Assembly: GCA_047947115.1 (NCBI GenBank)
Contig: CP170459.1
Span: 2,368,001 to 2,432,000, forward strand
Origin: Verrucomicrobiota bacterium
Lineage (GTDB): Bacteria > Verrucomicrobiota > Verrucomicrobiia > Limisphaerales > AAA164-E04
DNA: 64,000 bases
Reading direction: 5' to 3'
Positions 2,531 to 36,923 of the stretch are shown in pieces. The notes below the pieces were generated by a model that saw only the letters and a program-made list of their open reading frames with translations, was not told where the DNA came from and ran no database searches. The translations under genes and the position numbers were made by a program. The first letter of the stretch is position 1, and each line of letters starts with the position of its first letter.

Positions 2531-3753
2531 CGTTGACGTTGTTGTTGCACGTATTGCTTTAGTTCTTCTCGCAGGTTCGTCCCCAAAGCCCAACCTTGTC
2601 GGGCCAGGTCCTTTCGGAAAATCACTACGGGTTCTTCCCCGCTGGTGTCGACCACAAACTGTGTGCGACGAAATCCCCGGCCGTTTTTGCCGACAGCAGC
2701 CACATCCACCATGAACCGCTGACTGGATCCTGCGAAATATTCCTGAGCCTCGGTCAAATCTCCATCGCCGACGGCGTCACTGACCCAGCCCGTATCGGAA
2801 CCCAGGCCGGCCTGAGTGGACCTGTAGGAGACCAGCTGTTGAGCTTTGGCCTGGTCCATCCCGGGGAGGCAGGCCAGCACGGCTGCGCTGGCTGTGTTGA
2901 CATTGACTTTGAGGGTGGGTTCATCCCCTTGAATGTTGATATTATTGGGGGGATTTTGATCCGGTTGGTTGGTGCCCCCGTTAGTATTTCCCTGACCTTG
3001 GTCGTTGTTTTCCTCGGGGAATTTACTGAACACGGTCACGTATTCCGACAACCCGAAATCGAGTGTGCCGTTCTGATTGTCCATTGGCGGTGTGGCGTTG
3101 CCGTCGTTTTCATTGGGGTCCAGGATGCCGTTCATGTTGGCATCCTCGCCATAAACAAGAACAGGGGAGGCTCCGTAAACCATCATGAGCTCGTCCACGG
3201 TGTCGAACGGGGCGTTTTTGATTTGTCGGGATGGGATCATGCGGACGTAAACGTCTCCTTCGGCCCCGCCTTCGCTGACCTCCTCGTCCTCGTCACGCCA
3301 ATCGATGATGGCCGCCGCGAATTCGGGTGTCATGTTAGGCAGGTTTTCCAACATTTCCTGTGTGGCCAGGTTCAGGTCCAGTTTAGCGCCTTCATCCGTC
3401 AGTACGAATTCGGGGACGGTTGCATAAGCGTTTTGGGCGCCCCGGCCGATATACCAGTAAAGCGCTTCGCCCACAGTGCTGCGTTCGCGTGAGTAAGTGT
3501 TTGATTCCGGCAGCACGCCCTCTTCATCCGCATTGGCAAGGAGGTGCATCGCATATCTTAGGGCGCCATCAATGGCCTGTTCCGCCTGAAGACCTTCGTA
3601 GTAGTTTTCCGCCGCCCTGAATTCGAAATACATGGAATGCGAGAAGTAAAGCGTGACGCTGACCAATCCGAGTGCGACCCACATGACAATAATGAGGACC
3701 GAACCTTCGGTTCGACCTTGCTTGCGGTTTGTCATGGATGTTCGCTTTGTCAT
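2527..3753 (-). CDS. gspK: Type II secretion minor pseudopilin GspK
   Basis: G|SVLIIVMWV atypical prepilin site; DEGAKLDLN, AIIDWRD, KNAPFDTVDEL and VNVNTAS motifs. Confidence 0.9.
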   Translation of the reverse strand: MTKRTSMTNRKQGRTEGSVLIIVMWVALGLVSVTLYFSHSMYFEFRAAENYYEGLQAEQAIDGALRYAMHLLANADEEGVLPESNTYSRERSTVGEALYWYIGRGAQNAYATVPEFVLTDEGAKLDLNLATQEMLENLPNMTPEFAAAIIDWRDEDEEVSEGGAEGDVYVRMIPSRQIKNAPFDTVDELMMVYGASPVLVYGEDANMNGILDPNENDGNATPPMDNQNGTLDFGLSEYVTVFSKFPEENNDQGQGNTNGGTNQPDQNPPNNINIQGDEPTLKVNVNTASAAVLACLPGMDQAKAQQLVSYRSTQAGLGSDTGWVSDAVGDGDLTEAQEYFAGSSQRFMVDVAAVGKNGRGFRRTQFVVDTSGEEPVVIFRKDLARQGWALGTNLREELKQYVQQQRQR

Positions 3754-17593: not shown

Positions 17594-18534
17594 TCACTCC
17601 CGGGCCTGGTCAGTTGAAGTCGCAGGTGTAAGCGCCGCATTCAATGCAGGTTCCAGTTTGACGGCATGGCTTGATCCGGCGACAGCGAAGACACGTTCTC
17701 CCTTTTTGACCAGATCCAACAGAATGGCAAGGAAGTGTCGGTCGCGGATGATGTTTGCATCCATTTCACTTAAAAAACCCGGCATTTCATATTGGTCGGA
17801 TACCGTCCTCCAGTCGGGTCCGTTTGGAAAATGTTTATCCCAGGCATGTTGCAGGGATTGCATATTGGGGAAGGCGTTTTCTATTCCTGGCCATTGGTTT
17901 CGCTTTTTCCTGACAGATTCCACTACTGCATCCGGATCATCCGGGCGCCCATATCGCAGGTTCGAGAAGTAGGGGTGAGGATGAATCGAAGCGCCACTTG
18001 TTCTTTTGAATAGTCTTTCAGTAAATGTTCGATTTGAATTTCTATGGGTGGTTCCCAAGTATAGGTTGGGATGTTATTTATCCTTGCCAGAGCGTGAACA
18101 AATCCCGGTTCGCCAAACGTCCCGACCGGATCCATGAGGCCGGGGAACAAGATGCCCAGGCGACTTTCACAAAGAGCAACACTGGGGGCAAATTGTTTCC
18201 AGCGGGTTTCCATATCTTTGAGTTGAATATCGTCTGGGTCCTTCGTGTGTTCTGCTCCATAAAGAAGTATGGCTCCTCCATGTGAAGTCGTGATTTCCAC
18301 GACGAAGGGACGATCGTGCGAATCGATCAGCCCGCCATAATGTTGGTCGCTCAGAATGAGCCTCTGGTACCATTCGGCGCTGCCTTCGTGAGGTTGGTAG
18401 TCATCGAGAGGCCGCCATGCGAAAAGCAAGGCATAGATGCCAAACACGATGGCCGCGATGAACCAGATGGCGACCAAACGACAGAACCATGTGAGGATGA
18501 ATCGCCAGACTTGTTTGGCCAGGGGGGCTTTCAT
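17594..18534 (-). pseudogene. Membrane-anchored hypothetical protein, frameshifted at a C4 run
   Basis: Overlapping ORFs 17923-18534 and 17594-18058; one extra C at 17972-17975 joins ...LRFILT to PYFSNLRYGRPDD... Confidence 0.7.
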
Positions 18535-18660
18535 ATGGACGTATGACTTCGTGTGTTGGGTGAACCATTTCAACACACGAAGTCACACGTCAGTTTCATA
18601 AAAATTAAGAAAGGGCAGGGAACGTCCCTGAACAGCTGACTGGGCTGTGAGCCGTTTCTG

Positions 18661-18876
18661 TCAGGGCTGTTTGCGACTTTGATCCGAGGCAGGGGGAGTA
18701 GTGTTCTGGTGTGAATCTGGTTGCTCGACCGAGCAACTATCGGCCATTCACGTGGATATGCCAAGCCTGGGCAAAATGACCATTTGCAGCAACAGGTAGA
18801 CGCCGACAAACAACAGCACGCTCCCAAGGGGACTGCCGACGAAGTTCACGAGAAACGTCTTGATTGCCTCAAACAT
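18661..18876 (-). CDS. Candidate small membrane selenoprotein (71 aa; Sec at TGA 18748-18750)
   Basis: MFEAIKTFLVNFVGSPLGSVLLFVGVYLLLQMVILPRLGIST-U-MADSCSVEQPDSHQNTTPPASDQSRKQP; SECIS-like hairpin 10 nt after the TGA. Confidence 0.65.
18711..18751 (-). promoter_or_regulatory. Bacterial SECIS-like element
   Basis: GUGAAU/AUUCAC lower stem containing the UGA; perfect upper stem GUUGCUC-GGUC-GAGCAAC (18737-18720). Confidence 0.65.
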
Positions 18877-18907: not shown

Positions 18908-19522
18908 TCAACTATTCAACCATTTTTTAACGGCGGGGATGGTTTCTTCAGGACTGACGTGGATCTGTCCCGACCATCCGCGTTCGATGGCTGCTTCCAC
19001 GTTTTCTGCTTTGTCGTCGATAAAGAAGAGGTCCCTGCCTTGGCGCCCCAAAATGTGTTCGACCTTTTCGTATAAGGCCAACGTGGGTTTCATCATGCCA
19101 TGTTCGTAGGAATAACAATGATGATCGAACTCACTGAAGAAAGGGAATGTTTCCCGGATAAAGGACACCGCTATTTCATTGGTGTTCGAGAAAACCATGA
19201 CGGGGACCTGTTCTGATTTTAGGGATCGCATGAATTCCACCATGACATCCCACTCCTCGAATATGTCGGCAAAATCGTTCCGAAAGACCTCGAAAGATTC
19301 TTGGTATCCACAAAGTGTGCCGATGTTTCGATAGAACGCCTCGGAGGACACTTCGCCCCTTTCATAAGCGTGCAGGTGCGGCGTTTGGTTGATCTCGGCC
19401 AGAATTTCCTCAGCCGTGGCATCGGCGTGGCGAGCAAGGTTTTTGGCCGCGATGCCGAAGTCAAAGTGGAGCAATACCTTGCCCAGGTCGAAAACAACGG
19501 CTTTTGAGTGCGTTTCAGTCAT
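18908..19522 (-). CDS. HAD family phosphatase
   Basis: VVFDLGKV motif I, FSNTN, MMKP, FFIDDKAENV. Confidence 0.9.
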   Translation of the reverse strand: MTETHSKAVVFDLGKVLLHFDFGIAAKNLARHADATAEEILAEINQTPHLHAYERGEVSSEAFYRNIGTLCGYQESFEVFRNDFADIFEEWDVMVEFMRSLKSEQVPVMVFSNTNEIAVSFIRETFPFFSEFDHHCYSYEHGMMKPTLALYEKVEHILGRQGRDLFFIDDKAENVEAAIERGWSGQIHVSPEETIPAVKKWLNS

Positions 19523-36683: not shown

Positions 36684-36923
36684 TTAAGACCTCAAAGCCC
36701 GAACTTGTTGCAGGATATCGTTCGGATCAGGAAATTGACCTGTCGACTTTTTACTATAGATCAGTTGATCGTTTACGGTCACTTCAAACAAACCTCCACT
36801 CTCAGGGATTAATGTGAGCGAGGTGATGTCTTGTTTGAGTTTCATGAGTTTCTCCGCCAGACCGACGGCTTTGGGCTCATAATTTCAAACGCTGCAATAC
36901 TGGATGGTAACTTTCAATCCCAT
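36684..36923 (-). CDS. SelW/SelT/SelH (Rdx) family selenoprotein, CxxU
   Basis: Not in ORF track: MGLKVTIQYCSV-U-NYEPKAVGLAEKL...LTLIPESGGLFEVTVNDQLIYSKKSTGQFPDPNDIL; TGA at 36885-36887 occupies the CxxU site; GGxFEV and GxFP Rdx motifs. Confidence 0.92.
36843..36881 (-). promoter_or_regulatory. Bacterial SECIS element of the Rdx selenoprotein
   Basis: UAUGAG/CUCAUG lower stem; GCCG-UCGGUC-UGGC upper stem-loop just 3' of the UGA. Confidence 0.75.

Follow-up and report, generated by a model that had tools for sequence, protein, structure and literature searches.

The minus-strand gene at positions 18661 to 18876 of the window, by which we mean the whole stretch of 64,000 nucleotides from Verrucomicrobiota contig CP170459.1 that was analyzed, is very likely, as judged from its sequence and that of its relatives, a well-supported member of a previously predicted and uncharacterized selenoprotein family. 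The preliminary description of this locus suggested an undescribed family, a view that is not borne out, since predictions are on record in three publications (PMC2398784, PMC5029168 and PMC12013277); the family is thus listed as predicted yet uncharacterized, rather than undiscovered. What is new here is the pairing of Cys and Sec forms, the co-occurrence of the family with the Sec machinery, and its links to persulfide-handling genes and to thioredoxin, including one fusion. A membrane-anchored role in redox or sulfur handling is tentatively proposed for the protein.

The reading frame starts with an ATG at 18876 and runs for 42 codons to a TGA at 18750-18748, beyond which 28 further codons stay open up to a second TGA at 18663-18661. 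The read-through product has 71 residues, with U43 and, five residues past the TGA, C48. Re-reading of the sequence found the start, the 42 and 28 codons and the Cys at +5 to be exactly as first described, and the hydrophobic character ascribed to the ORF was confirmed, residues 17-35 being strongly hydrophobic with a mean Kyte-Doolittle value of 2.43. The coordinates of the locus and of the related features are collected in Table 1. When its own genome was searched with the profile of alignment A4, the window gene was the best match and no paralogue was found. The genes that precede the locus, which from their translations we take to be dnaX, ybaB and recR, are followed by a HAD-family hydrolase whose synteny with the family gene is kept in the closest relative, L001, only. 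The window stretch is also contained in six RNA runs. In the four that were examined, contigs span the TGA and the hairpin with no listed difference at those sites; such contigs attest presence in RNA libraries, which may contain DNA, rather than strand or level. Two short RNA contigs from different studies cover little beyond the gene and end at 18615-18616, a weak hint in favor of the terminator-like hairpin of Table 1.

Table 1. Features of the predicted selenoprotein locus and of the second selenoprotein gene in the window.
Feature	Position	Strand	Remark
Complete ORF with TGA read through, 71 aa	18661..18876	-	predicted selenoprotein, Sec at residue 43
In-frame TGA, predicted Sec codon	18748..18750	-	TGA/Cys alternation among homologues
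Cys48 codon (U-x4-C)	18733..18735	-	inside 5' arm of hairpin
Predicted single transmembrane helix, residues 17-35, then family motif P-x-x-G-x-x-T	18772..18828	-	hydropathy, alignment A4
Upper SECIS-like hairpin: 7-bp stem, GGUC loop	18720..18737	-	loop begins 18 nt past UGA
Possible lower stem GUGAAU/AUUCAC including UGA	18711..18751	-	not conserved
Weak terminator-like hairpin 3' of gene	18616..18630	-	1 found vs 0.8 expected by chance
Upstream HAD-family hydrolase	18908..19522	-	31 nt before ATG
Rdx/SelW-type selenoprotein gene, C-x-x-U, one TGA	36699..36911	-	above TIGR02174 cut-off

The protein appears to consist of a membrane helix and a short tail. A P, a G and a T are invariant in alignment A4, and the residues at the helix end (W, L, L-P, G) are well conserved. 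In the AlphaFold model of a 48-aa homologue, P0010, residues 2-25 form a single helix, accompanied by a coil of low confidence. Among the TGA loci of the matches listed, K and R average 0.45 in the six residues before the helix and 3.9 in the 24 residues after it, which suggests that the tail lies on the cytoplasmic side. We therefore propose, with moderate confidence, an N-out, C-in topology in which the helix would be an anchor or a docking surface and the polar tail would be disordered. Neither Pfam nor NCBIfam 20.0 gave a score near a cut-off for the window protein, for 28 members of the alignment or for 20 full-length homologues. Three assignments were considered and rejected. A thioredoxin-fold selenoprotein does not fit a single helix plus coil, the U-x4-C spacing and the lack of any Pfam or NCBIfam match. 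A lipobox requires a positive n-region and a small residue before the Cys; in this family the N-terminal net charge is -0.3 (TGA loci among the matches listed) and an invariant Thr precedes the U or C, so that a lipoprotein was discarded. Membership in SELENOK or SELENOS was set aside given that no selenoprotein family of Pfam was matched and that the Sec, instead of lying at the C-terminus, has a median of 25 residues behind it.

Protein searches brought up 39 relatives. In almost all of them the last residue is the one just before the TGA position, and one continues with a Cys; databases store close relatives at a length of 42 aa, cut at the TGA position. The nearest named relative, at 78% identity, comes from a Verrucomicrobiota MAG. 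A direct scan of the genome collection gave only 2 loci, and a shallow profile run against 400 genomes of the phylum recovered the own genome and one weak stop-free match. No relative was found in the viral contigs searched, and in the ESM Atlas three unnamed 32-aa clusters came up at 0.75-0.76, which is under the level that the Atlas regards as reliable.

In a scan of metagenome DNA where the family motif was fixed and the following codon left free, the 118 matches listed had TGA in 110 cases, TGC in one and another codon in seven; TAA or TAG was read in none, be it in these matches or in the 111 family members among them. The seven matches with other codons have no hydrophobic stretch and were judged to be chance. 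Since the scan pattern favors one subgroup, the Sec:Cys ratio cannot be read from these counts. When 1.84 billion representatives were searched with a profile, 1,486 clusters (50% identity) were obtained at E up to 0.001. Among the best 150 of these 1,486 matches, the position is occupied by Cys in 91, by W in 20 and by another residue in eight; 27 end there and four were not parsed. The W forms are presumably TGA translated under code 4, and TGC was read in the DNA at six Cys-form loci. Cys homologues are thus abundant, and they keep the second Cys with its x4-C pattern, an alternation of TGA and Cys that the preliminary description had proposed to look for. A Cys at +5 is present in 111 of the 119 full-length matches taken from the best 150 of 1,486, and it supports a redox role, most of these matches being Cys forms, free of SECIS constraint. 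The picture is more varied in the 110 TGA loci among the matches listed, where the first downstream Cys falls at +5 in 76, at +6 in seven and later in 14, and is absent in 13; the tail of these loci is polar and unconserved, with a median of 25 residues. Nine loci (L013, L014, L025, L040, L051, L056, L090, L093 and L125) keep the TGA and the hairpin while Arg replaces the second Cys in a Cys-free tail.

Beginning 10 nt 3' of the TGA at 18750-18748 there is a perfect 7-bp stem capped by a GGUC loop, exactly as first reported, and a comparable stem in that position range follows only 325 of the 251,627 TGA triplets of the genome (0.13%). With its GGUC loop at 18 nt and a G in the first two loop positions, the hairpin has the form of a bacterial SECIS, for which the available part of a recent review gives an apical loop 16-37 nt from the UGA (PMC13188914). 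The folding energy of the single sequence is unremarkable (z -0.56 to -1.81), so that support for the hairpin comes from comparison across homologues. Using a test that requires at least -5 kcal/mol, a G in the first two loop positions and a distance of 14-26 nt past the UGA, we found the hairpin in 101 of 107 distinct TGA loci among the matches listed, as against 36% of synonymous-codon controls. The median folding z of these 107 loci is -1.8, with z above 0 in seven. Stem positions show several pair types each across loci, counted in registers that were picked per sequence and therefore lean towards pairing. This loose test was also passed by 3 of 6 Cys-form loci. The GGUC loop is more discriminating: within the order of the window genome it occurs in 17 of 18 TGA-form loci and in none of the five Cys-form loci. 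The SECIS-like hairpin has no U-tract and was not flagged by the terminator search.

The lower stem GUGAAU/AUUCAC, which the preliminary description had added to the hairpin, fared less well. It does pair in a 45-nt fold; it is lost in a 66-nt fold, a 121-nt fold pairs the stretch otherwise, and its 3' arm is absent from L001, the closest relative. For these reasons the lower stem was ruled out as a part of the conserved SECIS. Two other readings of the TGA codons were also rejected. The final TGA (18663-18661) as a second Sec codon is at odds with L001, which ends in TAA, and with the hairpin that follows it, which has no loop G. Re-initiation at the ATG after the first TGA has been discarded as well, Met being also the commonest residue at that place in the full-length matches (88/119).

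The genome is equipped to decode Sec, as had been assumed from the letters of the window. Its selC (tRNA-Sec) is accompanied by selA, selB and selD, whose proteins score above curated cut-offs; there is a TGA within selD too. The Rdx selenoprotein with a GGUC apex that was mentioned at the outset is indeed present in the window; its predicted apical loop is GGUCU, and the gene serves as an internal positive control for Sec decoding. We surveyed 401 genomes of the order, scoring only 16 candidates per genome so that misses are possible, and found the family in 23 of them, with 18 TGA forms and five Cys forms. SelA is encoded in 147 of the 401 genomes overall as against 17 of the 18 TGA-form genomes, and in the eighteenth (83% complete) selB was found, so that every TGA-form genome has selA or selB. 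The co-occurrence with selA has a Fisher p of 2.6e-7, a value that is overstated because 14 of the 23 family-bearing genomes belong to one taxonomic family. On the Cys side, no match to selA, selB or selD was obtained in three genomes (89-94% complete), while the two others have selA. Matches of about 50 bits to the tRNA-Sec model in those three genomes lie beside a sub-cut-off selB match that is likely EF-Tu, and were read as cross-matches. In the two Cys-form genomes that retain selA, the family genes (L128 and L132) have extra cysteines and a decayed hairpin, which suggests, from these sequences, a Sec-to-Cys reversion; such reversions are described as rare in bacteria in the portion of the review at hand (PMC13188914). 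Altogether, the storage of relatives as 42-aa proteins, the alternation of TGA and Cys, the conserved hairpin and the presence of the Sec machinery support the proposal of a 71-aa single-pass selenoprotein that gene callers truncate. Of the findings that the preliminary description had named as refuting its proposal, none was made. We consider it highly likely that SelB binds the hairpin and that Sec is inserted at the UGA.

The family can be traced back to the 2008 GOS survey, which in the accessible parts of its Table 2 and Dataset S1 lists an 'Unknown' family with 15 selenoproteins, 0 Cys homologues and no motif (PMC2398784). The profile that contains the window protein retrieves P0158 with an E value of 8.5e-9, and P0158, compared by eye with several reads in the available part of Dataset S1, agrees almost letter for letter, which ties the window protein to that published family. 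An 'Unknown (Geobacter lovleyi)' family is recorded in 5 organisms in the consulted part of a 2016 supplement (PMC5029168), the tie to the window family being by name only, and the family is present in the deep-Sep Data S1 of 2025, as far as this source was accessible (PMC12013277). By eye, 'Unknown (Geobacter lovleyi)' shares with the window family a hydrophobic stretch followed by [IV]LP[RK][LM]G-x-x-T-U-[ML]-x3-C and a polar tail. The window member differs from it by a 13-residue N-terminal extension that places its Sec at 43 instead of about 30. With respect to the 15 sequences and 0 Cys homologues in the accessible 2008 listing, the family now comprises 1,486 clusters at 50% identity with many Cys forms. 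The parts of the published listings that we had available propose no function for it, and no functional study was found in the literature searched, in which supplements were partly covered. The family is not named in the available parts of PMC1976440 and of a 2022 review (PMC9312934), nor does the available part of Table 1 of a 2026 review hold an entry that matches it by name or motif (PMC13188914).

We next turned to gene neighborhoods for hints of a function. Among the matches listed, 20 of 111 metagenome loci have rhodanese, YgaP, DUF302, TauE or YeeE genes. Rhodanese genes were observed 16 times against 0.29 expected from the own genome, an excess to be read with the knowledge that the neighbor profiles were trained on the same loci, that the background is one genome and that the loci are related, some near-duplicate and not independent. 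The Pfam-confirmed neighbors include metallo-beta-lactamase-rhodanese and pyridine nucleotide-disulphide reductase-rhodanese fusions. Both types of fusion have an established role in persulfide handling. Thioredoxin-like and ArsR genes were each found in seven of these 111 listed loci, ECF sigma genes in 10 and genes for FmdB-type zinc ribbons in 12. At least one tested neighbor family accompanies 46 of the 111 loci and none of the nine accompanies the other 65, at a sample where 36 loci hold less than 1 kb. ArsR, AcrB-type efflux and ArsA genes are present near some loci, the AcrB-type genes clustering in only 5 of those listed. Copper, mercury and cation-ATPase genes did not stand out among the 222 annotated neighbor ORFs. 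At the window locus itself no redox neighbors were found, and blastp gave no match between the metagenome neighbor set and the ORFs that flank the 23 order-level loci; the six order-level neighbors that are annotated are HD-domain, nitrilase, GBBH-like and esterase proteins.

A link to thioredoxin also comes from L121, where the helix-U-x4-C unit, on the minus strand, is joined in frame to a WCGPC thioredoxin domain. No in-frame start codon precedes this domain in the stretch shown, and the observation comes from a single contig that is cut at the locus end. L110 was also examined as a fusion and rejected, the thioredoxin being in frame yet having its own ATG. A search for longer or fused forms gave no further fusion, its two matches being both N-terminal over-calls.

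From these data we propose the following scheme. The gene would encode a selenoprotein of 71 residues that crosses the membrane once and whose U-x4-C pair is predicted to lie just inside the membrane. This pair would accept either an oxidant or sulfane sulfur, after which thioredoxin would reset it. The selenol could form a selenenylsulfide with the Cys at +5, or carry persulfide-type sulfur, and the protein would be an accessory of persulfide and thiol-stress systems. A selenol/thiol pair tethered to the membrane, loaded by oxidant or sulfane sulfur and regenerated by thioredoxin, is a credible, though tentative, reading in each of its functional steps. It is favored because of the conserved second Cys, the rhodanese and thioredoxin neighbors and the L121 fusion; it is weakened because the window locus has no redox neighbors and the loci of its order share none of the metagenome neighbors, because 13 of the 110 TGA members among the matches listed lack the second Cys and 14 have it beyond +6, and because the fusion is one contig.

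A parallel can be drawn with the eukaryotic selenoproteins SELENOK and SELENOS, which span the membrane once and have a disordered tail in the cytosol. In SELENOS a Sec-Cys pair is reduced by the thioredoxin system. In both proteins the Sec lies close to the C-terminus and the SECIS belongs to the 3' UTR, whereas the Sec of the window protein sits a few residues past the helix; the parallel is one of analogy only. With Rdx/SelW, Trx and Prx selenoproteins (UxxC or CxxU), the family shares a Sec and a nearby conserved Cys; it differs by its U-x4-C spacing and by the absence of a folded domain and of any Pfam or NCBIfam match. As for decoding, E. coli fdhF-type SelB/SECIS genes have in common with it the in-frame UGA, the hairpin in the coding region, the loop G and selA, selB, selC and selD, although the window product is not an enzyme of known fold and its lower stem is not conserved.

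On the other hand, one could assume that the U/C-x4-C site of the selenoprotein binds soft metals or metalloids at the membrane, or passes them on, with no redox cycling. Several Cys forms have extra Cys by the motif, which would suit ligand binding, the FmdB-type zinc ribbon is the commonest single neighbor (12 of 111 loci among the matches listed), ArsR, AcrB-type efflux and ArsA genes are nearby, and metal-ligand roles have been proposed for other small selenoproteins in the accessible part of the review (PMC13188914). We nevertheless find this rather unlikely, as copper, mercury and cation-ATPase genes are not prominent among the 222 annotated ORFs and as several loci have their ArsR and AcrB genes together with rhodanese, YgaP and DUF302 genes. 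The FmdB-type genes, which carry a C-terminal Cys motif, are found beside or near the family gene, both up- and downstream, at L012, L016, L022, L028, L033, L034, L043, L053, L068, L069, L112 and L117. For FmdB proteins, too, Sec forms have been predicted, according to the part of the review that was available (PMC13188914).

The protein could also assist or regulate a larger membrane protein as its small subunit, the helix docking on this partner and the Sec acting as a redox switch for it. The W, L, L-P and G at the helix end are conserved beyond the needs of a plain anchor, and transporters and kinases are often under the control of small single-helix proteins. No particular membrane partner recurs throughout the loci, however, AcrB-type genes clustering in only five, and we hold this possibility to be unlikely.

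Another hypothesis lies in the overlap with ECF sigma genes. At nine loci (L018, L024, L027, L041, L052, L058, L065, L097 and L124) the ATG of an ECF sigma gene is situated inside the selenoprotein tail, 34 or 40 nt from the first UGA base, directly past the hairpin and always in the +1 frame. In six of the nine, the next gene is a short Cys/His-rich ORF that resembles a zinc anti-sigma factor (no Pfam match at 1e-5). A selenium-dependent translational coupling is possible at these loci, and if the SECIS did gate ECF translation in this one lineage, selenium supply would be tied to a stress regulon. One would then wonder whether the short ORF is mainly a selenium-sensing leader, in which UGA read-through, or SelB on the hairpin, sets the translation of the next gene. 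The nine loci fit this idea, but they are probably of one lineage, and no gene overlaps the tail in the window; moreover, the TGA-free Cys forms are abundant and conserved as proteins, which argues that the peptide itself matters. We regard the leader as very improbable. A broader proposal, namely a minimal class of membrane selenoproteins that are thioredoxin-recycled partners of persulfide and thiol-stress systems and that in one lineage have a SECIS turned selenium sensor, gating the translation of the overlapping ECF gene, seems to us distinctly unlikely in its entirety.

Finally, an ordinary stop that releases a 42-aa membrane peptide, the hairpin being a terminator or chance, would agree with the truncated form held in databases, the unconserved tail beyond the second Cys and the weak single-sequence folding z-scores, but it is extremely improbable in view of 111 family members (among the matches listed) with no TAA or TAG, of Cys homologues that continue with the same x4-C pattern, of a hairpin with no U-tract and of TGA forms that track the Sec machinery.

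The family is large at its 1,486 clusters (50% identity), truncated by gene callers, devoid of an HMM and missing by name from the catalogue tables of 2022 (PMC9312934) and 2026 (PMC13188914), in the parts of them that were available. This is not its first sighting, and it becomes testable through its Cys homologues, its co-occurrence with the Sec machinery and its gene context. The Cys homologues, counted as zero in 2008, now provide the standard Sec/Cys evidence as well as an easily expressed form. The proteins are among the smallest predicted selenoproteins and have no enzyme fold, so that their function would show what selenium does on a bare membrane anchor.

Minor observations concern the DNA 3' of the gene. 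A 21-bp inverted repeat at 18538-18591 (95% complementary, 12-nt loop, single copy in the genome) overlaps the start region of the downstream ORF. In L001, three copies of a REP-like repeat with about 25 conserved bases lie directly 3' of the family gene (3194-3373), at a site that corresponds to unrelated sequence in the window. In the window, at 17594-18576 on the minus strand, two overlapping ORFs of 217 and 154 aa in different frames, both without family matches, are possibly one frameshifted gene.
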